Source: a bacterium
GTDB taxonomy: Bacteria > Verrucomicrobiota > Kiritimatiellia > RFP12 > UBA1067
DNA: 38,191 bases
Direction: 5' to 3'
NCBI GenBank assembly: GCA_963661055.1
Contig: CAVLAC010000002.1
Span: 1 to 38,191 of the forward strand
Positions 1,481 to 37,590 of the stretch are shown here, in pieces. Below the pieces are notes generated by a model. It was given only the letters and a program-made list of their open reading frames with translations. It was not told where the DNA came from and searched no databases. The translations under genes were made by a program, and so were the position numbers. How positions within the stretch are numbered: position 1 is the first letter of the stretch; every line of letters begins with the position of its first letter.

Positions 1481-1515
1481 AAGTGTCGCTAATAATCGTT
1501 TAGAAGGAGAAATTG

Positions 1516-4500: not shown

Positions 4501-5994
4501 CGCGTTGTTTATACTTTCGGGAAGGGCGATGAGGCTGTCACCTATCTGCCGCGCTTTACCTTCTTTGGTTATCGCTATATCTCTATTACGGCGACGAAGA
4601 ATGTGGTTATTGAGTCACTCGAAAGCGTGCCCGTGAGTTCCGTCACGAAGGCGATGGAGTCGGGCAAGATTGAGGTGGGCGACCCCGACCTTAATCGCTT
4701 CCTCCAGAATGTGTATTGGGGACAACTTTCCAATTACCTTTCAGTGCCAACGGACTGCCCTCAGCGCAATGAGCGCCTCGGTTGGAGTGCGGATACTCAG
4801 GTCTTTTGTGAGGCGGGCTCGTTCAATGCGGATACGCGGCGTTTCTTTGCGAAGTTTACGCGCGACCTGCGGGATAATCGCTGTAAGGACGGCGGCTTCT
4901 CGTCCGTCGCCCCGCTCGCACAGTACGGAAACGAGACCTTCGTCTTTGGCTGGGCGGATGTCGGCGTGATAGTTCCGTGGACCATCTGGAAGCACTATGG
5001 CGATACAAGCATTGTGGAGGCGAACTGGGACGCGATGGTCAAGTTTGTGAAGAAACTCGATGAGACGAAGTACAACTTTGAGGGCAAAATTGGCTATATT
5101 TACGCGGATTGGCTCTCGTTTGAGACCTTTGAGAGTTTCGGCAACCGCTTTGGGAGCTGGAAGAAGTGGGGGAAGGACCCCGACGCACGCAATTATCGCC
5201 TCTTCCTTGCCGCGTGCTATTGGCTCTACGACGCACAATTGATGTGCGAGATGGGCGCGGCAATTGGCAAGACCGAGGATGTCGCCTACTTTAAGGAAAG
5301 CGCGGCACGGGCGCGGGAATATATCCGTAGTAAATTTGTGGAAGCGGACGGACTCCTCCTGAAGCCTATGCGCGGACTCCAAGCGGCGTGCGTTTTTGCG
5401 CTCAAGTTTGGCATTGTGGAAGGCGCGGCAAAAGAAGCAACGAAGAAGATTCTGCTCGACTCCATTGCCGCGCATGATGGATGCCTCCAAACAGGCTTCT
5501 TAGGGACGAGCTTCTTTATGGATGTCCTTGCCCAAGAGAATGAATGGGACGCGGCATACGGACTTCTTTTGCAACACAAGAACCCGAGTTGGCTCTATTC
5601 GGTCGACCAAGGCGCGACAACCGTTTGGGAGCGCTGGGATAGCTATACGAAAAAGGATGGCTTTGGCTCTTCGTGCATGAATAGTTTCAATCACTATGCG
5701 TACGGATCTGTCGCCGCGTGGGTCTATCGTAATGTGGCAGGTATCGCGTCCGACCCCAAAACGCCTGGCTTTAAGCGCCTCATCCTCGCCCCGAAACCCG
5801 ATCGGAGATTGGGGTATGTGAAGGCGAGTTATCGCTCGGCGGCAGGTGAGATTAAGAGCGCGTGGCGGTATGAGGGCAATAAGTGGCTTTGGGACTTCAC
5901 CATCCCCGAGGGCGTGACCGCCGAAGTGCATCTCCCAAATGGCACTGCCCCCGAAACCCTCCCCGCCGGCACCTATCACCGCGAACTCCCTTAA
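1516..5994 (+). CDS. Secreted two-domain glycoside hydrolase: N-terminal GH95-like domain fused to a C-terminal GH78 alpha-L-rhamnosidase-like domain
   Basis: Signal peptide MKKVVCSAAIAALCLVAGA. GH95-type motifs: LQGPW..PWNGDYHFNINVQECY and HRHHSHMAGIFP. GH78-type motifs: VPTDCPQRNERLGWSADTQVF and TVWERWDSY. ATG 1516 preferred over TTG 1513 on SD spacing. Confidence 0.8.
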   Translation: MKKVVCSAAIAALCLVAGATEGIVEWDFPRLGNCHEGMAFADGVTGVLVWGGGDELRLTLGRADLWDHRGGYPWTADQNYKHIVNLWKTGEKEALLSLFKKETPEGEPRNPYMLPLGRLVVKMKDARLVRGELNTRTGLGTLFLADGRTLEMATSPQSRTFSIRFPEGLDYEVSSIPSMEQPIANAALSKLGFRAAVKREDGFDWELPADPSVSVSYQKNGRDLGVVTYRDGKSVAPATFDAVKAQSFAHWQSFWARSARIHVPEPILQRIYDYGMYRFGAMTDPNGVPAGLQGPWLEDDKLVPWNGDYHFNINVQECYAPAFRGGHFANLKPLFKMMLAWRPLLRENARKFCGIEDGYVMPHSVDDRGVCIGGFWTGTIDHGSAAWMASYMFRYVKYAKDTDFLREAAYDFMKGTMNVYLAMLEEDKDGNLAIPFGPSPEWGATDFEKAVGRNPSFQLAACHRLAKDLISAAKMLGEEPDARWIAIEKKLPYFAKGERGIDIFEGVDLNETHRHHSHMAGIFPFDIVPRLNGENKDVLAATYRNWVERGTGLWSGWCVPWASVLHTDAGNAVAAVEMLRAWERYYCDEGHGSHHNAVWDGFTAFDKGRGVMQMDGQCAATAAVLELLVHEIEGEPQFFRGCPEDWKEVSFENVALADGRRVSGCRKNGVASIWEAGGVFSSEESEWLSVKDAPVFTGEVKDGARAADGTSWFYRAVTNEEKLVSAKWTVSGLGVFDVFVNGKRVGTDFLKPGFTHGKKTRFAFSYDVTELMKSEKGGVNDFAAEVSAGWWRDKIVNFVGKKSAFRGELVLEYANGTRQVVGTRAADWASGVAGAVTHAAIFDGEEYDARQINPTAGQGLSTAQTEANLEFAGEILPSPGAEVVLREDLAMKPIEAYTWQGVEGANSNEYGRVIRTHTFMPGEKLSIRAGETLVADFGQNCAGVPRFTFRGEEGTVLTALPAEMLNDYNGAKSRGNDGPEGSVYRTNLRSPEEGMRVVYTFGKGDEAVTYLPRFTFFGYRYISITATKNVVIESLESVPVSSVTKAMESGKIEVGDPDLNRFLQNVYWGQLSNYLSVPTDCPQRNERLGWSADTQVFCEAGSFNADTRRFFAKFTRDLRDNRCKDGGFSSVAPLAQYGNETFVFGWADVGVIVPWTIWKHYGDTSIVEANWDAMVKFVKKLDETKYNFEGKIGYIYADWLSFETFESFGNRFGSWKKWGKDPDARNYRLFLAACYWLYDAQLMCEMGAAIGKTEDVAYFKESAARAREYIRSKFVEADGLLLKPMRGLQAACVFALKFGIVEGAAKEATKKILLDSIAAHDGCLQTGFLGTSFFMDVLAQENEWDAAYGLLLQHKNPSWLYSVDQGATTVWERWDSYTKKDGFGSSCMNSFNHYAYGSVAAWVYRNVAGIASDPKTPGFKRLILAPKPDRRLGYVKASYRSAAGEIKSAWRYEGNKWLWDFTIPEGVTAEVHLPNGTAPETLPAGTYHRELP

Positions 5995-13975: not shown

Positions 13976-14131
13976 ACGACGTGGGCTCTGGGTTGCTCGC
14001 GAATACAGCAGAAATTTCTTTGACCGACGTTTCGAAACTAGGGGTATTTCATCCCCCACTTGGAATACAGGGTTCCAGAGGTTCTGCACTACGGCAACGC
14101 GGGGTCTTTTATTCTTTTTAAGCCGCTTTGA

Positions 14132-14812
14132 ATGGCTTGCGCACTCATAATCCCCGCCTATAATCCGAACGGACGCCTCCCCGCGCTCTTGCGGGCGGTC
14201 GCCTCCCACTTTTCGAGGGTCATCCTCGTCGATGATGGCTCAACTGAGGGACGCGAATATATAGAGGAAGCGCGGCACTTGGTGAGCGAGGTGCTGGTTC
14301 ATCCTATAAATAGAGGAAAGGGTGCGGCACTTAAGACGGCATTCGCCGTCCTGAAGCCTGATGAGGATGCCGTCACGGCAGATGCTGACGGACAGCACGC
14401 GCCCGAGGACATCTTGCGCGTTGCCGCCGCGCTTGAGACTTGTCGTGAGGGGCTGGTGCTCGGATGTCGCAAGCGTGAAGGGGCGACACCGCTCTTAAGT
14501 CGGCTCGGGAACGGATGGTCCAGATTCTTTTTCCGCCTTTTAAGAGGTTTTAGCGTGAGCGACACCCAAACGGGGCTGCGGGGAGTGCCCGCGCCCCTTG
14601 TGCCGCACTTGCTGAAGTTGCCAGGTGAGCGGTACGACTACGAACAGGTTATGCTCCTCGAAGCGCGGCACTTTAGGGATAAGGTGGTCGAAGTTCCTAT
14701 TAAGAAGGTATACTTCGACGGAAACGCCGCGAGCCACTTTCGTCCGTTCCGCGACACTTTCCGCAACCACCTCGCCCTGCTAAAAGCCTTCTTTAAGACG
14801 AAAAGCGCCTAA
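14132..14812 (+). CDS. Family 2 glycosyltransferase (small, soluble type)
   Basis: Motifs IIPAYNP, VDDGS and DADGQH. Confidence 0.8.
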   Translation: MACALIIPAYNPNGRLPALLRAVASHFSRVILVDDGSTEGREYIEEARHLVSEVLVHPINRGKGAALKTAFAVLKPDEDAVTADADGQHAPEDILRVAAALETCREGLVLGCRKREGATPLLSRLGNGWSRFFFRLLRGFSVSDTQTGLRGVPAPLVPHLLKLPGERYDYEQVMLLEARHFRDKVVEVPIKKVYFDGNAASHFRPFRDTFRNHLALLKAFFKTKSA

Positions 14813-14823
14813 CTGCCGCGCTT

Positions 14824-14880
14824 ATGGCGAAAATTTCGTCACGAAAATTTCGCCATGACAAACTTTTTTCACTTTTTTGC
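14824..14880 (+). terminator. Putative intrinsic terminator: 15-bp-arm hairpin ATGGCGAAAATTTCG-TCA-CGAAAATTTCGCCAT (one mismatch) followed by two T6 runs.
   Basis: Read directly from the sequence. Located 12 nt after the glycosyltransferase stop. Confidence 0.6.
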
Positions 14881-14910
14881 ATTTTCCCCCTTGCGGGGGA
14901 AGTCAAAATA

Positions 14911-14919
14911 TGGTATACT
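14911..14919 (+). promoter_or_regulatory. Extended -10 element TGGTATACT for the secreted-protein operon.
   Basis: TGnTATACT located 36 nt upstream of ATG 14955. GAGGAG SD at 14941-14946. Confidence 0.5.
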
Positions 14920-14954
14920 ATTATCATCTTCAACGGATAAGAGGAGAATTAAAG

Positions 14955-16079
14955 ATGGCTAGACTACTTGACAAATGCTGGATAAGCGCGTGCGCCGCAC
15001 TCGCGTTTTCGGTTGTATCCGCAGCCGCCGTTCAGGACGACTTTGAGAGCACCGACACTGGTTCTACGCCCACAGGCTGGACGGGCAACGGGACGGTTGC
15101 AGCTGAAGAGTATACTTACACCAAGGCGGTCGGGCTTCCTCTTACGGATGAAGGGCAGGCACACACCAAGACCCTCGCTGTCTCGGGGCAGGCAGTTCGC
15201 ACCTATGGTGAGGATACAGCGACTGGCGAGTCGGTCACCGTGGATATGATGGTTAAGATTATGGCGGCGGATGATGTCCCAGATGCTCCTGACACAACCT
15301 CTGATATTCAGGTGGCCATCGCGACAGGTCCTGTGGCGGACGATGCGACGGTTGCTCCTATCTATATCTATAAGGGCACAACGACGGATGACGGAACCAC
15401 CTATGATTGGGAAGATACGGGCAAGTCGTATGAGACCAACTCCTGGGTGCGTCTTATGATGGTGATGGACTATGATAACAACGCGTGCAAGGTCACGATT
15501 GACGGCGATCTCATCGGTACGGTTAACTTCCCTGGCACATCGCTCACAGCGTCGAAGAAGGTTTCTTCCATTACTGTTGAAGGTTTGACCTCGCTTGACG
15601 ATGTTGTTGTAACAGGCAATGAAAAGAGTGCCTCCGCGCTCGACCCATTCCCAGAGAAGGCGACGAGTGAAACGGCAACAGTCGGCACTGACTCGGTTCC
15701 TGTCAAGCTCAACTGGCTCTATAAGAACGGCATTGACGGTGATGTGTCGAAAGTGATGGAGACCAAGTGCTCTGATGAGTCGGGTATGACCTATGCTCAG
15801 AAGTATGAGGCGGGTCTCGATATCGACGACAAGCAGAAGTTCGAAGTCTCCTCGATGTCGATTACGGAAGCGAAATCGGCGGTCTTCACAGTGCCTGGCA
15901 AAGCAGATTCCTACTCGGTTGTGATTGATTCGGACGGCACCACCACCACGGTGATCCCGACGACCAGCACTGAAAACGGTGTGACCACGGCGACGGTTGA
16001 TCTTTCTCAGGTCACTGGCAAGGTCATCAAGTTCCAGCTCAAGGCTAAGGCTGTAGACCCTAATGCAAGTTCTAACTAA
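14955..16079 (+). CDS. Secreted hypothetical protein A (374 aa), possibly with an N-terminal LamG/jelly-roll-like region
   Basis: Signal peptide MARLLDKCWISACAALAFSVVSAAAV. DDFES..GSTPTGWTG motif. Thr/Asp/Ser/Val-rich. Start trimmed from 14877 to the ATG with an SD. Confidence 0.7.
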   Translation: MARLLDKCWISACAALAFSVVSAAAVQDDFESTDTGSTPTGWTGNGTVAAEEYTYTKAVGLPLTDEGQAHTKTLAVSGQAVRTYGEDTATGESVTVDMMVKIMAADDVPDAPDTTSDIQVAIATGPVADDATVAPIYIYKGTTTDDGTTYDWEDTGKSYETNSWVRLMMVMDYDNNACKVTIDGDLIGTVNFPGTSLTASKKVSSITVEGLTSLDDVVVTGNEKSASALDPFPEKATSETATVGTDSVPVKLNWLYKNGIDGDVSKVMETKCSDESGMTYAQKYEAGLDIDDKQKFEVSSMSITEAKSAVFTVPGKADSYSVVIDSDGTTTTVIPTTSTENGVTTATVDLSQVTGKVIKFQLKAKAVDPNASSN

Positions 16080-16102
16080 TTTAAAGGAAAGGACGCTAGA
16101 AA

Positions 16103-16840
16103 ATGAATAAACTTTCAGTTATGATTGCGGCTTCCGCCCTCGCGTTCGGTGCGTGGGCGACCCCGAGCTTCGTGCAATTCTCGTCCGTCGGACCTGACAC
16201 CTACGCGGACGGCACAGAGGTCGTTGACGGCGAAATCTATGCGCTCGTTTCCGTCTCCAGCGATGGCAAGTTTGAGGGTATCAACTCGGACGGCACAACC
16301 GTCGACCCCAATGATAAGATTCTTTACGCCGCGCCGCTCGCGCTGAACGGACACTGCAAGAATGTGGTCTTCACCCTCAAAGATGGACAGCCCACCTCGA
16401 ATCTCGCGGTTTATTTGCTCGACACCCGCATCAAGGCGGATGACGGCACTTCTACGGTGGCAGGCGTTGATGAGAATGGTAAGTTGAAGCTCGTCAACAG
16501 CTATGCGGCAGTTGAGGACGCTATTTCGGGTGGCTCGGTCGCGAAGTCGACAAGCAAGGAGGTTCAGACAACGGCTCTTGCAACCGTCGCACTGGGTGAT
16601 GTCCCCACTCCTACGATTAAGGGCATCAAGGTCGTTGGCGCGAAGGTGGAAATCACTGTCGCGAATACCGTCCCTGAAGTTCGGTACACGGTTAAGGGCG
16701 GTGAAACACCGTCTAAGATCGACAAGAGAGACCTCGTTTCGGGCATCAATGGCGTGGCAAATGGCGAAATCACCCTCGTGGTGGATAGCGAAGCCGCTAA
16801 GGATTGCCGCTTCTTCAAGGTAACGCGCGCAACTAAGTAA
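16103..16840 (+). CDS. Secreted hypothetical protein B (245 aa)
   Basis: Signal peptide MNKLSVMIAASALAFGAWA. Beta-rich composition, no recognisable motif. SD AAAGGAAAGGA upstream. Confidence 0.7.
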   Translation: MNKLSVMIAASALAFGAWATPSFVQFSSVGPDTYADGTEVVDGEIYALVSVSSDGKFEGINSDGTTVDPNDKILYAAPLALNGHCKNVVFTLKDGQPTSNLAVYLLDTRIKADDGTSTVAGVDENGKLKLVNSYAAVEDAISGGSVAKSTSKEVQTTALATVALGDVPTPTIKGIKVVGAKVEITVANTVPEVRYTVKGGETPSKIDKRDLVSGINGVANGEITLVVDSEAAKDCRFFKVTRATK

Positions 16841-16853
16841 GGAGGATATGACG

Positions 16854-17636
16854 ATGAATATGAAAAGTATACTATTTGCCGCGACAGCGGCGCTCGCAGT
16901 CAGCCTCCAAGCCGAGGTGACAGCGAATAATACGCTCTGCCGTATCGAGGTCGAGAGCTCGGCGAAGAGCGTCATCGTAGCCGTCCCCCTCGTCGCAGTC
17001 GGTAGCGGGGATGTCAAGGTTACAGACTATATTATGACCACCAACCTCAAGGACGGCGACTCGATTCTTATGTGGGATACGAAGAACACGAAGTGGGTGG
17101 GCTGGGTCATCAGTAGTGGTGCTTGGGTGGCTCTAACTGATGTTTCTACGACTGGTGGCGTCAGCGCAGGGCAACCTGCAACCGATTCCGCTCTTGAGCG
17201 TGGTACGGCAGTTTGGCTCAACCGCTCTAGTGCAACGATTGAAGAGAACGATAGCTTCTATCTCTACGGGCAGGTCGCCTCGAGCACGGCTGATGGCGTT
17301 ACCTTGACGGCTCAGGCTGGTGGCTATACCCTCCTCGGCAACCCCACCACAGCGAGCCTCGACCTTAGCACGCTGAGCTGGAACGATTGCAATGAAGGTG
17401 ATACTATCTATCTGAGTAGCGACACGCAGGGTGGTATTAGCTACTATGAATATCGAGTTCCTACTGACGGCGCTGAGGCGAAATGGTGCTCAAAGGCAGT
17501 TACAAAGAATGATAAGGGCTTCTCGAAGACGACCTTTACGGCGATTTCTTCGGGAACGGTTACCCTTGCACCTGGCGAAGGATTTTGGTATAATAGTACA
17601 AGTTCTAGTAGTAGCCCGAGCGTGACTATCAAGTAA
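16854..17636 (+). CDS. Secreted hypothetical protein C (260 aa)
   Basis: Signal peptide MNMKSILFAATAALAVSLQA. ATG 16854 has the best spacing to AAGGAGG (16839-16845); ATG 16848 is also possible. Confidence 0.7.
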   Translation: MNMKSILFAATAALAVSLQAEVTANNTLCRIEVESSAKSVIVAVPLVAVGSGDVKVTDYIMTTNLKDGDSILMWDTKNTKWVGWVISSGAWVALTDVSTTGGVSAGQPATDSALERGTAVWLNRSSATIEENDSFYLYGQVASSTADGVTLTAQAGGYTLLGNPTTASLDLSTLSWNDCNEGDTIYLSSDTQGGISYYEYRVPTDGAEAKWCSKAVTKNDKGFSKTTFTAISSGTVTLAPGEGFWYNSTSSSSSPSVTIK

Positions 17637-17656
17637 ATTTGAGAGGAGAGTAAGAA

Positions 17657-18208
17657 ATGAAAAATAAAATTATAGCGGCTTTGCTGACAGCGACCTTCGC
17701 GTCCGTTGTCTCGGCACAGGTTCTTTATTGGCAGGTAAAGCCAGATGTCACGATTAGTGGTACTAGCACCACTGAGGGTAACAAGTGGAACTATGCTTCG
17801 TTTTGGGCAGTGAATAGTGATAATACGGCTTCATTGGTCACTAGTTACACATTTAATACAGACAAAACAGTAACAGATGTGAGTTATGTTGATACGACCT
17901 ACCTTTCTGGCAACACTCCCGCATATGTTAACTACACATCAACTGACTATACGGGCTACTCGTTCTACATTGAGTTGACCAATTCCTCTGGTGATACTGA
18001 TGTGGGTGTTGCTCGGTCGAATACTTTTGACTCGAGTAGTTTTGGTAATGCTCTTCAAGACGCGGCAAACTTCAATGCCAACTGGACGAGCATCAATGCT
18101 ATTGGCTCTGGTTTGACCTTTACGGCGATTCCTGAGCCGACGAGTGGGCTTATGCTTCTTGTGGGCGCGGCAATCTTGGGTCTGCGTCGCAAGCGCCAAC
18201 AGATTTAA
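17657..18208 (+). CDS. PEP-CTERM sorting-domain protein D (183 aa)
   Basis: Signal peptide MKNKIIAALLTATFASVVSA. C-terminus IPEPTSGLMLLVGAAILGLRRKRQQI has the PEP motif, a TM helix and a basic tail. Confidence 0.85.
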   Translation: MKNKIIAALLTATFASVVSAQVLYWQVKPDVTISGTSTTEGNKWNYASFWAVNSDNTASLVTSYTFNTDKTVTDVSYVDTTYLSGNTPAYVNYTSTDYTGYSFYIELTNSSGDTDVGVARSNTFDSSSFGNALQDAANFNANWTSINAIGSGLTFTAIPEPTSGLMLLVGAAILGLRRKRQQI

Positions 18209-18239
18209 ATCATTAACTTTCCTTTCTGTTATGATTGGA

Positions 18240-18263
18240 GGGGGGCGCAAGCCCCCCTTTTTT
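18240..18263 (+). terminator. Intrinsic terminator: GGGGGGC-GCAA-GCCCCCC hairpin (GNRA loop) followed by TTTTTT.
   Basis: Read directly from the sequence. Located 32 nt after the stop of the PEP-CTERM gene. Confidence 0.85.
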
Positions 18264-18275
18264 GGTTGTGGGCGG

Positions 18276-18356
18276 CTAGAGGGGCTAGAAGTTCTAGATT
18301 AGCTAGAAGTTCTAGTTGTTCTAGAATGGCTAGATTATCTAGCTCGGCTAGAATAG
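18276..18356. repeat. Nine tandem 9-bp units, each starting with CTAG (CTAGAGGGG, CTAGAAGTT, CTAGATTAG, CTAGAAGTT, CTAGTTGTT, CTAGAATGG, CTAGATTAT, CTAGCTCGG, CTAGAATAG).
   Basis: CTAG begins at 18276, 18285, 18294, 18303, 18312, 18321, 18330, 18339 and 18348, which is an exact 9-bp phase. Confidence 0.9.
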
Positions 18357-18389
18357 CGGCTTAGCCCGCTTTTAAGCCCTTGGGGCTCT

Positions 18390-18524
18390 TTGTTAAAACC
18401 CTTGCCCCGTTTGTTAAAACCCCACCCTGCTCTTGTTAAAACCCTTGCCCCCGTTTTTACAAGAGCAGGGCGGGGTTCTAAAGAGAGCAGGGCTGGGTTT
18501 TAAAGAGAGCAGGGCGGGGTTTTG
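18390..18524. repeat. Convergent block of 22-bp-phased repeats. Three forward TTGTTAAAACCC units start at 18390, 18411 and 18433. Three AGAGCAGGGC(G/T)GGGTT units, which are the reverse complement of the longer form of the same unit, start at 18462, 18484 and 18506.
   Basis: AACCCCACCCTGCTCTTG (18418-18435) is the inverted complement of CAAGAGCAGGGCGGGGTT (18460-18477) with one mismatch. Confidence 0.8.
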
Positions 18525-18602
18525 AAAAGGGGCGGCTTGCCTCTTAATTTTGGCTAATTTGGCCCCATTTTTAAAATAATTGCCCCCTTATGTCCTCTAA
18601 TT

Positions 18603-18611
18603 TGGTATAAT
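18603..18611 (+). promoter_or_regulatory. Extended -10 element TGGTATAAT, 7 nt upstream of ATG 18619 (leaderless arrangement).
   Basis: Exact 9-mer. Confidence 0.45.
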
Positions 18612-18618
18612 AGAGGCT

Positions 18619-18735
18619 ATGAAAAACGATAAAGTTTCGGTTCTGAGGCAGCAAACAAATTGGCAGGAACTCTATTTCTACCAAAAGACCGTTACGCTAT
18701 ATCAGCTAACAGTCGTCTTTTGTCGGCTCTTCTAA
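18619..18735 (+). pseudogene. 38-codon N-terminal fragment resembling a four-helix-bundle protein (the family carrying a Y..L.SYQ....YD.TV.FC.RF N-terminal motif)
   Basis: Translation is MKNDKVSVLRQQTNWQELYFYQKTVTLYQLTVVFCRLF*. It is below the ORF-track cutoff and stops where full-length members continue for more than 100 aa. Confidence 0.45.
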
Positions 18736-18758
18736 CCCTTGAGAAAGTAGGCTGTTTT

Positions 18759-18767
18759 TGCTATAAT
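18759..18767 (+). promoter_or_regulatory. Extended -10 element TGCTATAAT for the rdgB-fusion operon.
   Basis: TGnTATAAT located 43 nt upstream of ATG 18810. AAGGTGG SD at 18797-18803. Confidence 0.5.
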
Positions 18768-18809
18768 CTTAGGTGAAATGAGTAGAAGTACTTTGAAAGG
18801 TGGGCGCTA

Positions 18810-20141
18810 ATGCCTGAGATGAGAAAGCCGAAGCTTTATGTGGCAACACATAATAAGCATAAAATCCGTGAAATCGGCGAGATAATGTCCGATTACGAGA
18901 TTGTCGCTGATAACCCTGAGGGTGCCGAGGAGACAGCGGCGACTTTTGAGGGGAATGCGCTCATCAAGGTGCGTGCGATTGCGGTACGGCACTTGGGTTC
19001 GTGGTGTCTCGCCGATGATTCGGGACTTTGCGTTGACGCGCTCGACGGAGCACCAGGCGTCCATAGTGCACGCTATGCGGGTGAGCCCTGTGATACAGCG
19101 GCGAATAATGCGCTCTTGATGAAAAACCTCTCGGGTATCACCAACCGCCACGCGGCATTTGTCTCGGCGGTCGCTCTCATTGACCCTGCTGGCAAAGAGC
19201 ATGTCGTCGTCGGCAAGTGCCACGGACTCATCGCCGAAACGCCCTCTGGCAATGGAGGCTTCGGGTACGACCCCTTATTCATTCCCGAGGGCTATGAAAA
19301 GACTTATGCCGACCTCACAGAAGACGAGAAGAACGCGATCTCTCACCGTGGACGCGCCTTGCAAGCGGCGCGGGAAGTCCTTAACGCGGCGAAAGTTCCG
19401 CGCTCACGCGGCACTTTTCTCGCGTGGCTTCGGTTCTTTCGCGTTGTGAATTTGCCAACATTGCCAGGTGATGTGCTCGTCGGCGCGGCACTTGCGATTG
19501 CCGCGTGCAAAAATATGATTGGGCATTACTCGCCCGCGCCACTCGTAGCGTCCATTCTTGCTTCGTGCTGTCTCTATCTCTATGGACTTGCCGATAACGA
19601 TATTGTTGGCGCGGCGACAGACATAGATCGTCCGATTCCACGCGGCGAAATCTCCCTTGGCGCGGCACGCTTTGCGCGGGGGCTTTGCTGGCTCGGGGTC
19701 TTAATTTGTGCGCTCGTGGGAGGGCTTCCGCTCGCGTGGTGGCTCATTGCTTGTGTGCTTCTCGCTGCCATCATCGCCTATAATCGTCTGAAGATTGCTG
19801 TTTTGATGGGACTTTGTCGCGGACTCAATGTGCTTCTCGGCGCGGCAGTTTTTGGGATTGCCCCTTTAAAGGCTGTCCCTGTTCTTGGCGCGGCACTTCT
19901 TTGGACGCTCTTCATTACTGCGGTCACCAAGTACTCAGAAGGTGAGCACGCCGACCCCGCGAAGCAACGCCGCGTCGGGGTCTTGATTGGCTCGCTCATC
20001 TATCTGCAACTCGCCGTGCTCGTGGGGGCGACGCTAATTTGTCCTGTGCGTCCACTTCAGGCATTCCTTATTACTGGGGCAATCCTGCTCCTCGTCCTTC
20101 GGTTTATGAAGCGGGCATTCCCCCGCGTGGAGGCCTCATGA
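18810..20141 (+). CDS. Fusion protein: N-terminal RdgB/HAM1 non-canonical purine NTP pyrophosphatase (about aa 1-195) joined to a C-terminal UbiA-like prenyltransferase membrane domain (about aa 200-443)
   Basis: N-terminal motifs: ATHNKHKIREI, ADDSGLCVDALDGAPGVHSARYAG, GFGYDPLF, ISHRGRA. The C-terminal half has about 7-8 hydrophobic helices and an Asp-rich motif LADNDIVGAATDIDRPIPRGEIS. The frame is uninterrupted across the junction. Confidence 0.7.
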   Translation: MPEMRKPKLYVATHNKHKIREIGEIMSDYEIVADNPEGAEETAATFEGNALIKVRAIAVRHLGSWCLADDSGLCVDALDGAPGVHSARYAGEPCDTAANNALLMKNLSGITNRHAAFVSAVALIDPAGKEHVVVGKCHGLIAETPSGNGGFGYDPLFIPEGYEKTYADLTEDEKNAISHRGRALQAAREVLNAAKVPRSRGTFLAWLRFFRVVNLPTLPGDVLVGAALAIAACKNMIGHYSPAPLVASILASCCLYLYGLADNDIVGAATDIDRPIPRGEISLGAARFARGLCWLGVLICALVGGLPLAWWLIACVLLAAIIAYNRLKIAVLMGLCRGLNVLLGAAVFGIAPLKAVPVLGAALLWTLFITAVTKYSEGEHADPAKQRRVGVLIGSLIYLQLAVLVGATLICPVRPLQAFLITGAILLLVLRFMKRAFPRVEAS

Positions 20142-20163
20142 AGAAATTAATAGTTATTATTAC

Positions 20164-20190
20164 GGGGCGCAAGGGACTGCGCCCCCTACC
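20164..20190 (-). repeat. GGTAGG-hairpin family member. The + strand reads GGGGCGCA-AGGGAC-TGCGCCCC-CTACC.
   Basis: 8-bp perfect stem with the conserved AGGGAC loop and CTACC flank. Lies inside an operon, ending 3 nt before the GAGGAG SD of the next gene. Confidence 0.8.
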
Positions 20191-20203
20191 GTGAGGAGAA
20201 TTT

Positions 20204-21349
20204 ATGAGAAAGTTAACAGTCATTGCTGCGGGGCTCGGGTGGGATGTGCTTACCCGCAATAAGACGGAAAAGATTGCGGATCTCACCTTCACGCCCAAAG
20301 AAAGCGTCTTCCCTGCTGTCACTTGCGTGGCGCAAGCAACTTTGCGGACAGGGCTCACGCCCGCCGAACACGGCATGATTAGCAACGGAAAGTGGATGGA
20401 CGACCTTCGCAAGCCGCTCTTTTGGGAACAGAGTGCCCGCCTTGTGAAAGGGCACCGCGTCTGGGAGCGCGAAGACGGGGGAAGTCCCGTCGGGCTCTTC
20501 TTCCTTCAGCAGTCGCTCGGCGAATCGGCGAGTGTCATTGTCTCGCCCGCGCCCATTCATAAGCACGGCGGCGGGATGATTATGAGTTGTTATACGCGTC
20601 CAACTGAGATGGCGAAAGTCATAAGCCGCGTCGCAGGGAAGTTCCCGCTCCATCGTTATTGGGGCCCGCTCGCCTCCGCGAAAGTGGGACGCAACTGTAT
20701 TGCTTGGTTTGAGACGATGACAAGCGTGCAGGATGTGGAGGAAGCGTATCTCTATTTGCCGACTCTCGACTATGCCGCCCAGAAATACGGACCTGGCAGT
20801 GCGCAAGACCGCGCGGCGTTTCGTGAATTCACGCGGCAGATTGAGACGCTCTCGCGCCTTTGTATGCAGCGCGGATGCTCGATGTGCGTCATTGGTGACT
20901 ACAATATTACGCCTGTGACGGAAGCGGCGGTGCGTCCGAATGTCGTCCTTCGCCGTGCGGGACTCTTCAAGACACGCACCATAAAAGGAATGGCGTATCC
21001 CGACTTTTATCAGTCGTCCGCTTTCGCGATGTGCGACCACGAGTTCTGTGTATTAGAAGGCGAGAAGGCGGCGGAAGCTGAGAAAGTGCTCCTCGCGACA
21101 GGTGACTACACCTTGCCCGGCGCGGAAGCCGTGCCCAATAAGCGCATTCTACTCGCGAAACAAGGTTCGTGGTGCGAGTACAAGTGGTGGACCGATGACC
21201 GTGAGGCTCCCGACTTTGCCGCGCATGTCGATATTCACAACAAGCCCGGATACGATCCGCGCGAACTCTTCCTCTTCTGTAAAGGCGAGGTCAAGGGTAC
21301 ACACGGACGCAAGTGTGAGGTGGCTTATTCTGAAGGAGATGGACTATGA
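20204..21349 (+). CDS. Alkaline-phosphatase-superfamily protein (nucleotide pyrophosphatase/phosphodiesterase type)
   Basis: N-terminal pattern LTVIAAGLGWDVL..FPAVTCVAQATLRTGLTPAEHGMISNG is typical of this family (the nucleophile Thr lies in the TC context). Also a later GDYNITP. Confidence 0.6.
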   Translation: MRKLTVIAAGLGWDVLTRNKTEKIADLTFTPKESVFPAVTCVAQATLRTGLTPAEHGMISNGKWMDDLRKPLFWEQSARLVKGHRVWEREDGGSPVGLFFLQQSLGESASVIVSPAPIHKHGGGMIMSCYTRPTEMAKVISRVAGKFPLHRYWGPLASAKVGRNCIAWFETMTSVQDVEEAYLYLPTLDYAAQKYGPGSAQDRAAFREFTRQIETLSRLCMQRGCSMCVIGDYNITPVTEAAVRPNVVLRRAGLFKTRTIKGMAYPDFYQSSAFAMCDHEFCVLEGEKAAEAEKVLLATGDYTLPGAEAVPNKRILLAKQGSWCEYKWWTDDREAPDFAAHVDIHNKPGYDPRELFLFCKGEVKGTHGRKCEVAYSEGDGL

Positions 21350-22098
21350 AGATGAACTTCTGTGTGCCCGTTGGAGCATTCTTCGTTGGAATTGCGCTTG
21401 GTTTTGGGCTTGCGCCACGGGAAAGTGCACCGCAAGAAGCGACTTCCGAGCCGACAACTGCCGCGCCGAAGAAGAAGGACATCCTTCCTAAGCGCGAAGT
21501 GCCGCGCTCCGAGGAGGGTGTCCCTCAGGAGAAAGAAGAGAAAGCCCCTATCTTAGTTCGTGAGGAAGTGAAGGACTCGAAGAAGCAGCCCCATAGTCCA
21601 CACGACTATTTTGCCCGTATGAAGAAAGAGCGTCCGCAGGACTATATCAAGATGACGAACAATATGGCGAGGGCGAGAGCGGAGCGCCGCGCTAAGTTAG
21701 ATGATAATCTCAAGTTCTTATCGTCCATTGATGTTTCGAAGTTTAGCGAGGAAGCGACGGCGAATCATGAACGCCTTCAGGAGCTACTCGCGCGGCAGAC
21801 GGAACTCGCGGAGATAATGGACCCCTTACTGCATGAAAATGTGACCGAGGAAGATCGGCGCAAGAACTTCGATGAGATGATGACGGTCACTAGGGAAATC
21901 AACGAACTCAACGCGGCAGAACGCGATACACTCTTTCGGACGGTCGCCGAGGAGATGGGGTGCGCCGAGGAGGATGCGGATACTTTTGTGGAAACACTCA
22001 CGGACATCATAGATGCGACGGGAGGCAACTTCGGTGGGTTCGGTCCGCGTCGGAATTCGCCGCCGCCGCGTCCGCCCGCAGGAGGAGAACAGAAATGA
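21346..22098 (+). CDS. Membrane-anchored hypothetical protein with a charged helical ectodomain or cytoplasmic domain
   Basis: N-terminal TM segment FCVPVGAFFVGIALGFGLA, followed by a Lys/Glu/Arg-rich sequence and a Pro-rich tail. ATGA overlaps at both ends. Confidence 0.6.
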   Translation: MKMNFCVPVGAFFVGIALGFGLAPRESAPQEATSEPTTAAPKKKDILPKREVPRSEEGVPQEKEEKAPILVREEVKDSKKQPHSPHDYFARMKKERPQDYIKMTNNMARARAERRAKLDDNLKFLSSIDVSKFSEEATANHERLQELLARQTELAEIMDPLLHENVTEEDRRKNFDEMMTVTREINELNAAERDTLFRTVAEEMGCAEEDADTFVETLTDIIDATGGNFGGFGPRRNSPPPRPPAGGEQK

Positions 22099-23090
22099 AA
22101 GAGAAGAAGAAAGTTAATTCCATTCAGGATGTCGTCGATTTGGCGAGTGCCTTCTATGGGAGTGCGGTGCTATTTGCCGCGCTCGATGTGAATCTCTTTG
22201 AGCAAGTGGAGAAGGGGACGCTTGACACCTCCTCACGGGGCATGCGCCTTTTGGCGGATGCTTGTGTGGCGCTCGGACTTCTCGCGAAGAAGGGCGATAA
22301 GTACTCCAATACGCCACCCGCGCAAGCGACACTCATTCCAGGTGCGCCCGCCGACCTCACGAAAGCTATCCGTTATAATCGTGATGTGTATTGTGCGTGG
22401 GGCAAGCTTGCGGAGTTTGCTCAGACGGGGCGTCCCGTGGAAAAGCCCGCCATTCATCTTGGCGAGGACGCGACACGTACGAAGGCGTTCGCCGCCGCGA
22501 TGTTTGGACGTGCGATGGGCATTGGGCGCGGCGTTGTGCCGCTTCTCGATCTGCCGCGCAAGGAGGGTGCGCGGGTACTCGATTTGGCAGGAGGGCCTGG
22601 CGCGTATGCGATATTGATGTGTCAGCGTTGCGAGGGGCTGAGGGTCACGACCGTGGACTTGCCCGCCATTAGTGCGGAAGCCGAAGGCTATGTGACGCGG
22701 GCGGGACTCGCCGACCGTATCACTTGTCAGGCGGGTGATTACCATACGGACGACTTTGGCGAGGGACTCTATGATGCGGTCACGATCTTCGGTGCACTCC
22801 ATCAGGAGTCGTCGGTAGAGATTGTGGCGATTCTGAAGAAGGCCTATCGGGCTTTGAAGGCGGGAGGGCAAATTTTCGTCCTCGATATGATGACGGACTC
22901 CACTCACACAGCCCCCGCCTTCTCGGCGCTCTTCGCCGTCAATATGGCTCTCACTACTGAAAATGGCTGGGTTTTCGCGGATTCGGAGCTGAAAGGATGG
23001 CTCAAGGAAGCGGGTTTTGAGCCCGGTCCCACAGTCGCTGTGCCGCCCCCGATGCCTCATTGGCTCGTCGTCGCAGAAAAGAAATCTTGA
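22095..23090 (+). CDS. Class I SAM-dependent O-methyltransferase (family 2-like, with an N-terminal dimerisation-type region)
   Basis: SAM motif I VLDLAGGPGAYA. Downstream acidic and GGxxxVxD motifs (AGGQIFVLDMM). Start set to ATG 22095 (ATGA overlap, GGAGGA SD) rather than 21960. Confidence 0.7.
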   Translation: MKEKKKVNSIQDVVDLASAFYGSAVLFAALDVNLFEQVEKGTLDTSSRGMRLLADACVALGLLAKKGDKYSNTPPAQATLIPGAPADLTKAIRYNRDVYCAWGKLAEFAQTGRPVEKPAIHLGEDATRTKAFAAAMFGRAMGIGRGVVPLLDLPRKEGARVLDLAGGPGAYAILMCQRCEGLRVTTVDLPAISAEAEGYVTRAGLADRITCQAGDYHTDDFGEGLYDAVTIFGALHQESSVEIVAILKKAYRALKAGGQIFVLDMMTDSTHTAPAFSALFAVNMALTTENGWVFADSELKGWLKEAGFEPGPTVAVPPPMPHWLVVAEKKS

Positions 23091-23099
23091 ATTTCATAC

Positions 23100-23128
23100 T
23101 TGACGAAATCGCAAGAATAGTGTAAAAT
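23100..23128 (+). promoter_or_regulatory. Sigma70-like promoter: TTGACG (-35), 17-nt spacer, TGTAAAAT (extended -10), upstream of mreB.
   Basis: Read directly from the sequence; canonical spacing. Confidence 0.6.
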
Positions 23129-23156
23129 ATTAGTCAAATAATCGGAATTAGAAGAA

Positions 23157-24206
23157 ATGTCAGTATTCGGTAAGATAAGGTCGCTGTTCTCAACGGACAT
23201 CGGCATCGATTTAGGTACGGCGAATTCGCTCGTATACGCGAAGGATCGCGGCATTGTTTTGCGCGAACCTTCCGTCGTCGCTATTCAGGCGGGCTCCAAG
23301 CGAGTCCTCGCTGTGGGCGATGAGGCGAAGCGCATGTTGGGGCGCACGCCCGGTAATATCATCGCAATTCGCCCAATGAAATCGGGCGTAATTGCCGACT
23401 TCGATATTACCGAAGCGATGATCGCCTACTTCATCCGTAAGGTCTGCCCGCACCGCTTCTACTCGAGTATGAAGTGGGCGCGTCCGCGTATGGTAATCGC
23501 GGTGCCGAGCGGCATTACGGAAGTCGAGAAGCGGGCGGTCGAAGACGCGGCGCAAAAAGCGGGTGCGGGCAAGGTGTTCCTCATCGAGGAGCCGATGGCC
23601 GCCGCGATTGGCGTCGGGCTTCCCGTCAGCGAACCAGCGGGCTCTATGATTGTCGACATCGGCGGTGGTACGTGCGAAGTCGCGATTATTTCGCTCGCGG
23701 GCATCGTCCATAGCTACTCCGCACGCCAAGCGGGCGGTGACGCGATGGATGAATGCATTATGAAGTATGTGCAACGCGTCTATAACCTGCTTATTGGTGA
23801 ACGCATGGCTGAGATGATCAAGATTGAAATCGGCAGTGCTTACCCAACAGGCGAGGAGAAGACGCTCGAAATCAAAGGTAGGGATATTGTCGCAGGGTTG
23901 CCGAAGACTCTTACGATAACTTCCGAAGAAATCCGAAACGCTCTCAAAGATCCTGTGGGTCAGATTGTGGATGCCGTCCGTATCACGCTCGACAAGTGCG
24001 AGCCGGAACTGGCGGCAGACCTCGTCGACCGTGGGCTCGTACTCTCGGGCGGCAGTTCGCAGTTGCGCGGACTTGACAAGCTCTTGATGGAACAGACGGG
24101 ACTGCCCGTGACCATCGCCGAAGATCCACTCTCGGCGGTTGCGGAAGGTACGGGCGTCGTGATGAACGAGCTGGATTTCCTCGCGAAGAATAAAAGCGAA
24201 TCGTAA
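23157..24206 (+). CDS. mreB: Rod shape-determining actin-like protein MreB
   Basis: Motifs DIGIDLGTANSLVY, VIAVPSG.TEVEKRA and DIGGGT. Confidence 0.95.
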   Translation: MSVFGKIRSLFSTDIGIDLGTANSLVYAKDRGIVLREPSVVAIQAGSKRVLAVGDEAKRMLGRTPGNIIAIRPMKSGVIADFDITEAMIAYFIRKVCPHRFYSSMKWARPRMVIAVPSGITEVEKRAVEDAAQKAGAGKVFLIEEPMAAAIGVGLPVSEPAGSMIVDIGGGTCEVAIISLAGIVHSYSARQAGGDAMDECIMKYVQRVYNLLIGERMAEMIKIEIGSAYPTGEEKTLEIKGRDIVAGLPKTLTITSEEIRNALKDPVGQIVDAVRITLDKCEPELAADLVDRGLVLSGGSSQLRGLDKLLMEQTGLPVTIAEDPLSAVAEGTGVVMNELDFLAKNKSES

Positions 24207-36477: not shown

Positions 36478-36487
36478 GTGATACGCT

Positions 36488-36513
36488 GGGCGGAAGGGAC
36501 TCCGCCCCCTACC
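36488..36513 (-). repeat. GGTAGG-hairpin family member. The + strand reads GGGCGGA-AGGGAC-TCCGCCCC-CTACC.
   Basis: Read directly from the sequence. Forms a composite with the + oriented copy at 36532-36558, since CCTACC...GGTAGG can also pair. Confidence 0.8.
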
Positions 36514-36531
36514 AACCTACGGCGTAATGCA

Positions 36532-36565
36532 GGTAGGGCGGGCAGTCCCTTGCCCGCCGTTTTTT
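36532..36565 (+). terminator. GGTAGG-hairpin family member (GGTAGG-GCGGGCA-GTCCCT-TGCCCGC) followed by T6. Likely the intrinsic terminator of cysK.
   Basis: 7-bp GC-rich stem followed by CGTTTTTT. Confidence 0.7.
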
Positions 36566-36849
36566 ATTCGCTTTATTTTGTGCCTGACAACATGCGGCAC
36601 GGCGGGCGGCAACCGTGCTAACCCGCCCTGATGCGGGCGTTTATAAAAAGGGCTCTAAGACATTCTATTGAGGGAACATCACGGACATTTCTGTCCGTGC
36701 ACCTAACCTCTTTTACGCACGAGGCGCGGCGAATCCGCCGCCTCGTGCCCGCCCGTCTCACTCCGCTCAACGCTCGCCCGCCCCTCCCGCTCCTCACCAA
36801 CCGTCTTTCTTGGCTTCGCCCGCTCTATAATTTTACACGACTACTTTGC

Positions 36850-36923
36850 GGGGCGGAAGGGACTCCGCCCCCTACCACCCCACAGTAGTGTAAGGTGGTA
36901 GGGCGGGCAGTCCCTTGCCCGCC
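36850..36923. repeat. Second composite unit: a reverse-oriented hairpin (36850-36876) plus a forward-oriented hairpin (36897-36923), bridged by a CTACCACC...GGTGGTAG stem.
   Basis: Nearly identical to the composite at 36488-36558 apart from the bridge sequence. Confidence 0.8.
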
Positions 36924-37125
36924 GCGTGATAGAGGTTGTAGGCGGCGAGGGGCGGGGGTTGCACGAGAGGAGCGGAGCGGCTCGCCGCCGTAAGAGAGAC
37001 ATTCTCACGCAACCCCAAACCTTGTCTAGGCAGGGCTGACTGAACGAAGTTTCTTGTCTAAGCGCGAAAGGCGGCAAGAGACCGCGCAACGACGGGTCGG
37101 GCGACACCCGCACGAGCCGCCCACC

Positions 37126-37248
37126 TCTTCTCTGTGACTCTGTGCCTTTGTGACTCTGTGTTAAAAACACATCTACAATTCTACAACTCTACACGGTTAA
37201 ACAACCGCTTCTCTCTCCCGATTCTCCCGATCTACACGGCTAACTCAT
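37126..37248 (+). repeat. Three consecutive triplicated-unit modules: TCTCTGTGAC/TCTGTGCC/TTTGTGAC/TCTGTG + TTAAAAACAC; ATCTACAAT/TCTACAAC/TCTACACGG + TTAAACAAC; CTCTCCCGAT/TCTCCCGA/TCTACACGGC + TAACTCAT.
   Basis: Read directly from the sequence. Each module is 35-45 nt. Confidence 0.75.
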
Positions 37249-37250
37249 AC

Positions 37251-37277
37251 GGGGCGGAAGGGACTCCGCCCCCTACC
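37251..37277 (-). repeat. GGTAGG-hairpin family member (GGGGCGGA-AGGGAC-TCCGCCCC-CTACC).
   Basis: Identical to the copy at 36850-36876. Confidence 0.85.
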
Positions 37278-37315
37278 AATCCGTTCCCATCCGTGTAATC
37301 CGTGGTTAAAAACAC
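37278..37315 (+). repeat. Triplicated-unit module AATCCGTTC/CCATCCGTGT/AATCCGTGG + TTAAAAACAC.
   Basis: Read directly from the sequence. Abuts the hairpin, as at 5996-6060. Confidence 0.7.
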
Positions 37316-37351
37316 AAAGCCGCCACTCAGCCCCGAAGGGGCTCTCTAAAA

Positions 37352-37391
37352 CCTCTCTGCGAACTCTGCGGCTCTGCGTGAGATAAACAAC
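37352..37391 (+). repeat. Triplicated-unit module CCTCTCTGCGAA/CTCTGCGG/CTCTGCGTGAG + ATAAACAAC.
   Basis: Read directly from the sequence. Confidence 0.7.
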
Positions 37392-37420
37392 CCCAAAATC
37401 ACACCTACCCACACGGGTAA

Positions 37421-37447
37421 TTGACGGGGGGGGTAATATGGTATAAT
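37421..37447 (+). promoter_or_regulatory. Promoter candidate: TTGACG (-35-like, 15-nt spacer) plus TGGTATAAT extended -10.
   Basis: Exact 9-mer at 37439-37447. Would give a leader of about 140 nt before ATG 37591. Confidence 0.5.
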
Positions 37448-37481
37448 ATTGTACTAATAAATGGCTGTAAAAGGCTGTTTT

Positions 37482-37569
37482 GGTAGGGCGGGCAGTCCCT
37501 TGCCCGCCGTTTGGTAGGGGCACGCGTCCCTGCGTACCCGTTGGTAGGGGCACGCGTCCCTGCGTGCCC
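37482..37569 (+). repeat. Three tandem forward GGTAGG hairpins (37482-37508, 37513-37539, 37543-37569) with stems GCGGGCA/TGCCCGC, GGCACGC/GCGTACC (one mismatch) and GGCACGC/GCGTGCC.
   Basis: Read directly from the sequence. All three share the GGTAGG flank and GTCCCT loop. They lie between the promoter candidate and the PEP-CTERM gene start. Confidence 0.85.
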
Positions 37570-37590
37570 GTAAAGAAAAGAGAAAGAAGT

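Follow-up and report, generated by a model that had tools for sequence, protein, structure and literature searches.

A four-gene cassette ending in a PEP-CTERM gene, a candidate modular surface system of Kiritimatiellia

Results

A four-gene unit in a Kiritimatiellia contig

Kiritimatiellia are widespread bacteria that break down glycans in animal guts and rumens, and almost none are in culture. Here we describe a cassette of four adjacent genes, called A, B, C and D, in a 38,191-nt stretch of DNA (the window) from a gut bacterium of the Kiritimatiellia (RFP12; UBA1067; assembly GCA_963661055.1, contig CAVLAC010000002.1, positions 1–38,191, + strand). Open reading frame (ORF) calling on the window places the four as tightly spaced + strand ORFs inside one unit, which has the following features:

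14884–14901, + strand: palindrome TTCCCCC-TTGC-GGGGGAA, 18 bp (TTCCCCCTTGCGGGGGAA), overlapping the -35 position, 9 nt 5' of the extended -10
14911–14919, + strand: extended -10 promoter box TGGTATACT, 36 nt 5' of the A start codon
14955–16079, + strand: gene A, 374 aa; signal peptide, jelly roll at about residues 26–222, helical linker, C-terminal beta-sandwich at about residues 237–365
16103–16840, + strand: gene B, 245 aa; signal peptide, conserved N-terminal domain, Ala/Thr-rich linker, small C-terminal beta domain
16854–17636, + strand: gene C, 260 aa; signal peptide, then a beta domain of about 100 aa in two tandem copies (an ATG at 16848 would give 262 aa)
17586–17594, + strand: TGGTATAAT inside the 3' end of C, 63 nt 5' of the D start
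17657–18208, + strand: gene D, 183 aa; signal peptide followed by the strand LYWQV at the mature N-terminus, a variable core that includes SF(F/Y)IEL, and the PEP-CTERM tail
18125–18199, + strand: PEP-CTERM signal of D (residues 157–181), sequence IPEPTSGLMLLVGAAILGLRRKRQQI
18237–18266, + strand: intrinsic terminator GGGGGGC-GCAA-GCCCCCC plus T6, a hairpin followed by a T run

The four ORFs have the places and sizes given to them in a first-pass annotation made from the letters alone. In a public assembly with about 97% nucleotide identity over the stretch, an independent gene caller gives the same A, B and C products, D being truncated at the contig end. The intergenic gaps are 23 nt (A-B), 13 nt (B-C) and 20 nt (C-D), and, as annotated, a Shine-Dalgarno-like site precedes all four starts: AGGAG for A, GGAAAGGA for B, AGGAGG for C and GAGGAG for D. 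Promoter box, close spacing and terminator are all present, in keeping with the discrete transcription unit that had been claimed. All four genes are under purifying selection (ratio of nonsynonymous to synonymous substitution rates, dN/dS, of 0.13–0.34 against two relatives), and we therefore take them to be real genes.

The signal peptides that had been assigned to all four products were read by eye rather than with a predictor. This reading is supported by the AlphaFold2 (AF2) models, in which the confidence score pLDDT falls below 50 for residues 1–24 of A and 1–27 of C. In natural fusion proteins, the match to the C domain begins at profile positions 9–24, past the signal peptide, which supports cleaved signals at the N-termini of the stand-alone proteins. 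The composition is also distinctive: Thr and Ser together make up 22.5% of the cassette proteins versus 10.6% of the other window proteins, bearing out the richness in these residues noted at first sight, and Arg makes up 1.5% versus 6.4%.

Pairwise comparison of the four proteins found no homology among them. PEP-CTERM matches were the only ones to pass threshold in searches against Pfam, NCBIfam, PHROGs and PADLOC, so that the assignment of A, B and C to no characterised family stands, and sequence-profile searches of the PDB with close and diverse alignments of each protein gave no significant match (best E 0.06). No catalytic motif or enzyme fold was found in A–D, and full-text searches of the literature found no description of such a cassette. 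Conserved single cysteines were considered as sources of intermolecular disulfides, an idea that was dropped; a possible intramolecular partner exists in each window protein.

Predicted folds and families of the four proteins

Protein A is modelled as a ConA/LamG-like lectin jelly roll followed by a beta-sandwich. The AF2 model (pLDDT 76.5, from 17 homologues) has 92 Foldseek matches in the PDB at E ≤ 1e-3, and those listed are mainly lectin, glucanase and carbohydrate-binding module (CBM) domains. The calreticulin lectin domain matches at E 3e-6; NTNH, GH16, CBM66 and galectins are also among the matches, as is the lectin module of the Streptococcus sanguinis PilC minor pilin. Residues 26–222 match ConA-like folds at E values of 3e-6 to 3e-4, with target-normalised TM scores of 0.35–0.6. 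Model and structure search agree on the LamG/jelly-roll likeness that the first-pass annotation had suspected, and the Pfam model Laminin_G_3 stays below threshold (18.3 bits versus a cut-off of 27.6; E 0.0027). The linker carries a motif, NW...YAQKYEAGLD...KFEV, that is invariant in the alignment of the family. It had been compared to a segment of PVC-type surface proteins; it is indeed conserved within the A family, but it matches no library model. A word-indexed search returned only 18 clusters of A relatives, all without an informative name.

The N-terminal domain of B is marked in the alignments by the motifs FSS.GPD.YADG..V.DGE.YAL and LDTR, and the C-terminal end reads RFFKV; B has no Pfam, NCBIfam or PDB match. 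The two halves of C are homologous (hhalign of the N half against the C half, probability 84%, E 8e-6), and both carry the pattern GDxI...W...W...G.GFW; for the duplicated beta domain the motif reads GDxI...W...W...G.GFWY. The AF2 model of C is confident (pLDDT 81.2, from 49 sequences), and Foldseek finds no structural neighbour for it in the PDB (best E 0.012, TM ≤ 0.23) or in BFVD; Pfam, NCBIfam and PDB sequence-profile searches likewise gave no match. The family is large: a profile search of 1.84 billion cluster representatives found 1,553 relatives at E ≤ 1e-3, of which 461 reach E ≤ 1e-30, and none of the members returned by an annotated search has a precomputed Pfam domain. B and C are unannotated protein families, and the fold of C is without a known structural relative. 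In alignments, B, C and D each show conserved strands at their mature N-termini.

The canonical PEP-CTERM signal attributed to D is confirmed by two models, PF07589 (22.3 bits versus a cut-off of 20.7) and TIGR02595 (24.3 versus 16), and the tail is kept in all D homologues in the alignment. At the other end, MKNKIIAALLTATFASVVSA reads by eye as a signal peptide to be cut before QVLYWQV: its n-region is basic, its core hydrophobic and its cleavage site of the small-x-small type, all conserved in homologues. D stays below the cut-offs of all named PEP-CTERM subfamilies, FxDxF among them (NF038129, 26.0 versus 65; PEP_CTERM_TLD_A, 26.8 versus 100; floc PepA, 21.8 versus 80), and these are mostly matches to the tail. 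The GC content at third codon positions (GC3) of D is 0.47 versus about 0.65 for other window genes. A hypervariable core in D was considered and withdrawn, the gap that suggested it in one relative (L010) being a run of masked N.

PEP-CTERM proteins are exported by Sec and tethered in the inner membrane by their C-terminal helix; exosortase is thought to process them, with surface-attached or released proteins as the end state (PMC12188702). They are often glycosylated and associated with exopolysaccharide (EPS), and are enriched in glycosylation-associated residues (PMC12188702). The window holds a second gene of this kind, unlinked to the cassette:

37591–38163, + strand: D-family paralogue encoding a PEP-CTERM protein of 190 aa; a TGGTATAAT box of its own lies at 37439

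The paralogue matches the D profile at E 1.2e-7 over profile positions 4–180 and the Pfam PEP-CTERM model with 20.9 bits (cut-off 20.7), and no A, B or C gene precedes it. Given two PEP-CTERM genes in the window, the genome encodes more than one PEP-CTERM substrate. No exosortase match was found among the window ORFs scanned against Pfam. No EPS biosynthesis locus lies beside the cassette, which has a single family-2 glycosyltransferase (GT2) gene upstream and unrelated neighbours in other lineages.

Gene order and natural fusions

We scanned 31 fetched loci (labelled L001 and so on) with profiles of A, B, C and D; many are short metagenome contigs and several are near-duplicates. The order A-B-C-D, or X-C/D/B, recurs in about 12 lineages (our own count, taking C identity below about 60% as the criterion), whose C proteins are only 30–60% identical. 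Every A relative with enough flanking DNA has the same A-B-C-D order, so that the gene order, proposed earlier as a test of the annotation, is kept in relatives. In every locus with downstream sequence, D lies directly 3' of the C domain. B always adjoins the C/D pair, either before C, as in the window, or after D (L019, L028, L030). Even the distant C homologues (30–40% identity) lie in four-gene sets with the PEP-CTERM gene last (L014, L015, L017, L024, L031).

The surroundings of the cassette differ between lineages. One copy lies beside an rve integrase and a heavy-metal ATPase (L003), another beside a prophage-like ERF/YqaJ block (L007), and elsewhere the neighbours are dxs, MscS and others; a scan of metagenomes for further contexts yielded no more than 8 short contigs. 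The pheT...Ham1-UbiA synteny of the window recurs only in L009 and L010. The upstream ORF at 14132–14812 is a GT2, as the first-pass annotation had it (PF00535, E 9e-16), but it is kept only in the close syntenic loci L001, L002 and L009 and is absent from all other lineages. All named relatives are from Kiritimatiellia/Verrucomicrobiota; source names that are informative at all come from metagenome-assembled genomes (MAGs) of these groups and read "hypothetical protein" or "TPR protein" (TPR, tetratricopeptide repeat). Two cassette contigs, L010 and L011, are titled "Lachnospira hominis" and "Azospirillum sp. 51_20", probably through mis-binning or mislabelling of MAG contigs; over its synteny with the window, L010 has about 90% nucleotide identity.

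Several C-family proteins, of 430–2,980 aa, have the C domain as their last 235 or so residues. In P0143 (609 aa) a full-length A (profile positions 5–361, E 7e-34) is joined directly to C, and in P0220 (1,257 aa) the N-terminal domain of B stands at the start (E 3e-16) and C at the end. P0124 and P0129 have a segment ending in RYFK right before C, which by eye resembles the end of B, although the B profile does not match it. Six proteins of 2,300–2,980 aa terminate in the C domain, and one C-family relative, P0218, also carries a right-handed beta-helix (Beta_helix) and InlB-type repeats, as found in adhesins. Three of the fusion genes are followed by D, or by D and then B. Taken together, the A-C and B-C fusions and the invariant C-then-D adjacency indicate that A, B, C and D work together, and the gene arrangements suggest that C may be a module joining variable heads to a core of D (and B).

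In five loci, the gene directly 3' of D encodes a homologous protein of about 800 aa with some 10 predicted transmembrane segments, a soluble region and C-terminal TPRs; in three of them (L014, L015 and L031) the gene after that encodes another polytopic protein, of about 510 aa:

Membrane-TPR gene region, with the ~510-aa gene where present: L014, 4760–8787; L015, 3999–7990; L017, 7524–8090; L018, 8379–10796; L031, 10001–13890

The membrane parts of both proteins have no Pfam, NCBIfam or PDB match, and the membrane-TPR protein matches no exosortase model. Its homologues, from Kiritimatiellia MAGs, are named only "tetratricopeptide repeat protein" or "hypothetical protein", and there is none in the window. 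Both proteins may resemble GT-C glycosyltransferases; judged by its position, the membrane-TPR protein could be an assembly, glycosylation or sorting factor.

The MAG Verrucomicrobia bacterium UBA740 has two cassette copies; B is split by a frameshift in one and A is interrupted in the other (L012, 9173–9888, and L013, 186–1390), through possible pseudogenisation or assembly error. In L019 (9809–11065), D and B are called as one ORF of 418 aa, in which D keeps its PEP-CTERM tail and continues without a frame break into B, itself starting with a signal peptide; this is either a read-through of the gene caller or a real fusion.

Rate of change and recombination

The cassette evolves fast. Against L009 and L010, dN of A–D is 0.13–0.21 versus 0.001–0.074 in the annotated flanking genes, a 4–10 times faster rate; an unannotated flanking ORF, hyp250, changes as fast as the cassette (dN 0.13). 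The dN/dS ratio is mostly 0.19–0.34 in the cassette versus 0.01–0.13 in the flanks. Fast evolution and a Thr/Ser-rich, Arg-poor composition fit exposed, possibly glycosylated proteins.

Change is also uneven along the unit. L001 is 97% identical to the window overall. The two agree at about 100% across A and B and in C as far as position 17300 or so; from there identity drops to 48–78% over the final third of C and the beginning of D. The drop and the atypical GC3 of D fit a joint replacement of the C-terminal repeat of C with D, and on these sequence grounds the pattern looks like recombinational replacement of the two together. Such a joint exchange is expected if C and D interact or share exposure to selection. 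Diversification by a diversity-generating retroelement was rejected, being without a template/variable repeat: no repeat of at least 40 nt involves the cassette within 14000–24000, and no reverse transcriptase domain occurs in the window ORFs scanned.

Promoter, palindrome and terminator

The motif TGGTATAMT has seven copies in the window (at 295, 1472, 6120, 14911, 17586, 18603 and 37439), all on the + strand, versus 0.13 expected from shuffles, an over-representation of about 50-fold. It is therefore taken to be a common promoter type of this organism, and it offers a simple promoter marker for this genome. A generic sigma-70 scan missed the box at 14911 because the -35 hexamer, TTGCGG, fits at only 3 of 6 positions. 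A TGnTA(T/C)A(A/C)T box occurs at the equivalent position in L009, L010, L011, L014, L015 and L031, with variants in L003, L008 and L012. The copy at 17586 coincides with the W-Y-N codons of the conserved GFWYNS motif of C, and may be an internal promoter for D or a by-product of coding.

The palindrome just upstream appears specific to the cassette. Its core, CCCCTTGC(G/A)(G/A)GG, occurs once per locus, always 65–85 nt 5' of A, in the window and 14 loci, which span lineages with proteins only 35–50% identical; no copy was found in the rest of the 269 kb of loci or of the window. Changes in its arms across loci are non-compensatory, which makes a protein-binding DNA site likelier than a hairpin, and from its position we consider it a candidate operator or specialised promoter element. 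A further possible regulatory site is an 11-nt unit, CGAAAATTTCG, present twice at 14826–14852 with 3 nt in between (GGCGAAAATTTCGTCACGAAAATTTCGCC), after the stop codon of GT2 and before the promoter of the cassette.

At the other end of the unit, a terminator-like hairpin with a different stem lies 3' of D in L003, L008, L009, L010, L012, L013, L014, L015 and L031. In L017 and L018, D runs directly into the next gene.

Neighbouring genes and repeats

Other window genes include LpxK, MreBC-PBP2-RodA and a GH95-GH78 enzyme, and fit a diderm, glycan-degrading member of the Kiritimatiellia. The enzyme is a single ORF of 1,493 aa (1513–5994) with a GH95 catalytic domain and a complete GH78 alpha-L-rhamnosidase, and fits glycan degradation.

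Downstream of the cassette, 18810–23090 encodes a fusion of Ham1 (XTP/dITP pyrophosphatase) with a UbiA/EboC-like prenyltransferase, a type I phosphodiesterase, a 250-aa exported protein and an O-methyltransferase. This ebo-like fragment near PEP-CTERM genes recalls the cyanobacterial scy/ebo link (PMC12188702); it is not conserved with the cassette. A variant box, TGCTATAAT, with a TTGAGA -35 lies at 18739–18767, 5' of the Ham1-UbiA gene.

Right after the terminator, at 18267–18353, are about 10 copies of CTAGA at 9-bp spacing (CTAGAnnnn), an iteron-like array that is partly present in L009 and L010. The next 380 bp or so (18354–18730) are missing from these two syntenic loci and look like a small inserted element. 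Within it are repeats of 21–22 nt (18369–18540; four direct and three inverted) that form long hairpins, a TGGTATAAT box at 18603 and a 38-codon ORF (18619–18735) without a Pfam match; Rfam gave only sub-threshold, miRNA-like matches on this hairpin-rich spacer. A second repeat-rich region, 1.1 kb of non-coding DNA at 36480–37590, lies just 5' of the second PEP-CTERM gene. It has three copies of GGGCGGAAGGGACTCCGCCCCCTACCA, three of GGTAGGGCGGGCAGTCCCTTGCCCGCC and two of TTGGTAGGGGCACGCGTCCCTGCGT, and these sets are partly complementary to one another, like REP or MITE elements.

Discussion

We tentatively favour the reading that the cassette is a Kiritimatiellia-specific, modular surface-display or adhesin complex that depends on the PEP-CTERM/exosortase pathway. 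In this scenario, all four products would be exported by Sec, and the PEP-CTERM helix would at first keep D in the inner membrane. Cleavage by an exosortase whose gene lies elsewhere would then pass D to an envelope or exopolysaccharide acceptor, which would make D the anchor. The tandem beta-domain protein C may be an adaptor docking onto D, and B a conserved core accessory subunit. A would be the ConA-like lectin head, binding a host, dietary or own polysaccharide. In other Kiritimatiellia, head and adaptor would be joined in one chain, as an A-C fusion or as a giant protein with the C domain at its end. The operon would be driven by the extended -10 promoter under the cassette-specific palindromic site and ended by the strong terminator.

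The first-pass annotation had claimed a multi-subunit surface assembly, and the fusions and the C-then-D adjacency strengthen that claim. The physical complex itself, the contacts between its subunits, its surface location, exosortase processing and glycan binding are what we infer. The fibre or sheath proposed for the assembly has fared less well, and nothing specific points to either.

Several observations weigh against the complex that we favour. The window contains no exosortase, secretin or other outer-membrane export gene. Since the window encodes LpxK, the organism is a diderm, and in a diderm a Sec signal alone leads only to the periplasm. Contacts between C and D and between A and C are guesses from gene order and fusions, and fusions point to functional linkage rather than to a stable complex. 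No conserved link between the cassette and EPS or carbohydrate-active enzyme (CAZyme) genes was seen in the loci of all lineages examined. Glycan binding by A is a prediction from a model built on just 17 sequences, at the pLDDT of 76.5 given above.

If the complex is taken one step further, the C domain and D could constitute a protein docking and sorting system of Kiritimatiellia that has gone unrecognised, a possibility that we put forward with considerable doubt. The C domain, about 235 aa and internally duplicated, would be a C-terminal "plug" for payloads ranging from small lectins to 3,000-aa adhesins; exosortase-processed D would be the socket, and B the third core part. The membrane-TPR protein encoded after D in many lineages could then be an assembly or glycosylation machine.

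There are other ways to account for such a cassette. A–D may form no complex at all and be co-regulated, independent exported glycan-binding or envelope proteins, of which D alone is sorted; they might, for instance, capture oligosaccharides in the periplasm or at the surface of a gut glycan degrader. The lectin/CBM-like predicted fold of A, the large GH95-GH78 enzyme of the host, the lack of homology among the four proteins and the sorting signal on D only are all in line with this explanation. We nevertheless consider it unlikely: unrelated binders under shared regulation would not be expected to co-occur so strictly, to keep D right after C throughout about 12 lineages or to be fused as A-C and B-C, and the cassette never lies beside conserved CAZyme or transporter genes.

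A polymeric envelope structure such as a pilus-like fibre, an S-layer or a sheath, in which B or C polymerises with D at the base and A at the tip, seems to us quite improbable. The logic of the operon does resemble that of tip/stalk/anchor pilus operons, and the acidic, Thr/Ser-rich, Cys- and Arg-poor composition is that of S-layer and pilin proteins. Strong Shine-Dalgarno sites, promoter and terminator suggest high expression, and the conserved mature N-terminal strands of B, C and D could serve as donor strands. However, no pilin, FimA/Mfa, PapD, usher or S-layer model in Pfam or NCBIfam is matched, lipoprotein signals are lacking, and one subunit only has a sorting signal. In addition, C is the C-terminal domain of single giant proteins in relatives, which suits a docking module better than a stalk unit.

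The ebo-like genes downstream raise the possibility of periplasmic processing of an exported small molecule, by analogy with the cyanobacterial scytonemin PEP-CTERM proteins ScyD/E/F beside Ebo export genes. PEP-CTERM proteins work with Ebo in the periplasm (PMC12188702). In the window and close relatives, the Ham1-UbiA fusion, type I phosphodiesterase and O-methyltransferase genes follow the cassette, and the membrane half of Ham1-UbiA resembles EboC (NF035940, E 6.6e-22). That match is far under the cut-off (78 versus 250 bits), and of a complete ebo set (EboA-F) with PEP-CTERM enzymes the window has only an EboC-like half and a phosphodiesterase. D is set apart from the Ham1-UbiA gene by a strong terminator, some 600 nt of sequence and the separate promoter-like site at 18739–18767, the adjacency to the cassette is lost in every other lineage, and A–D have neither a catalytic motif nor an enzyme fold. 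This analogy would therefore appear very unlikely to hold.

We give hardly any credence to a phage-derived or defence cassette, such as a receptor-binding or exclusion module on mobile elements: copies do lie beside an integrase (L003) or a prophage-like block with a transposase-like gene (L007), one MAG has two copies, and D has an atypical GC3 in a recombination mosaic, but no PHROG match is significant (best E 0.0036), PADLOC, phage records and IMG/VR give none, C has no structural counterpart in BFVD, most lineages carry the cassette among housekeeping genes, and signal peptides and PEP-CTERM point to a role in the cellular envelope.

The cassette matters in several respects. A compact unit found across the lineage, it probably builds part of the exposed surface, and so bears on antigenic variation, adhesion and the reception of phages. 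Three unannotated families become approachable through it, one of them with about 1,550 clusters and no solved or predicted structural relative, and the C domain helps to annotate the giant proteins, so far called "hypothetical", at whose ends it stands. For the action of exosortase on its substrates, D, with an obligatory and identifiable partner, offers a concrete experimental system.

Among known systems, sortase-assembled pili of Gram-positive bacteria and the type V FimA/Mfa pili of Bacteroidia likewise consist of 3–5 exported, beta-rich subunits with a lectin-like adhesin and one anchor subunit, and the Foldseek match of A to the PilC lectin module of S. sanguinis points to a shared head logic. 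Unlike sortase, type V and chaperone-usher pili, the cassette has no lipobox, pilin, FimA or isopeptide domain, and its sorting signal is on D only. No pilin, FimA, PapD or usher domain was matched by Pfam or NCBIfam in A–D or their neighbours, and no plausible lipoprotein signal was seen in A–D. No sortase, usher or chaperone adjoins the cassette, and C is the terminal domain of giants rather than a repeating stalk.

A is predicted to share the jelly-roll fold of the ConA-like lectin/glucanase superfamily, to which it adds the linker motif and a C-terminal sandwich; it misses the sequence model Laminin_G_3, and the catalytic motif of GH16 is not evident in it. The C domain resembles the parts of cohesin-dockerin cellulosomes and the C-terminal domain (CTD) of type IX secretion system (T9SS) cargo in that it sits on variable N-terminal payloads, from a 350-aa lectin to 2,700 aa of repeats, and in that a small anchored partner gene, D, always accompanies it. 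It has no sequence or structural likeness to cohesin, dockerin or the T9SS CTD, docking being suggested by gene order only, and it differs in its size of about 235 aa and its internal duplication.

A further comparison is with PEP-CTERM/exosortase systems of the XrtA/EpsH type, with substrates such as Zoogloea PepA and Nostoc CrtB. D has the N-terminal signal peptide of these substrates and, at its C-terminus, their PEP motif, hydrophobic helix and basic cluster of Arg/Lys. It is also rich in Thr and Ser and has no other known likeness, as is the case for PEP-CTERM proteins described so far (PMC12188702). It differs in that no exosortase or EPS locus adjoins the cassette, in that D falls outside every named subfamily, and in that the PEP-CTERM protein is here the small last gene of a fixed four-gene module whose other three members are without the signal. 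What is new here is a fixed, modular four-part system of putative PEP-CTERM-sorted surface proteins.

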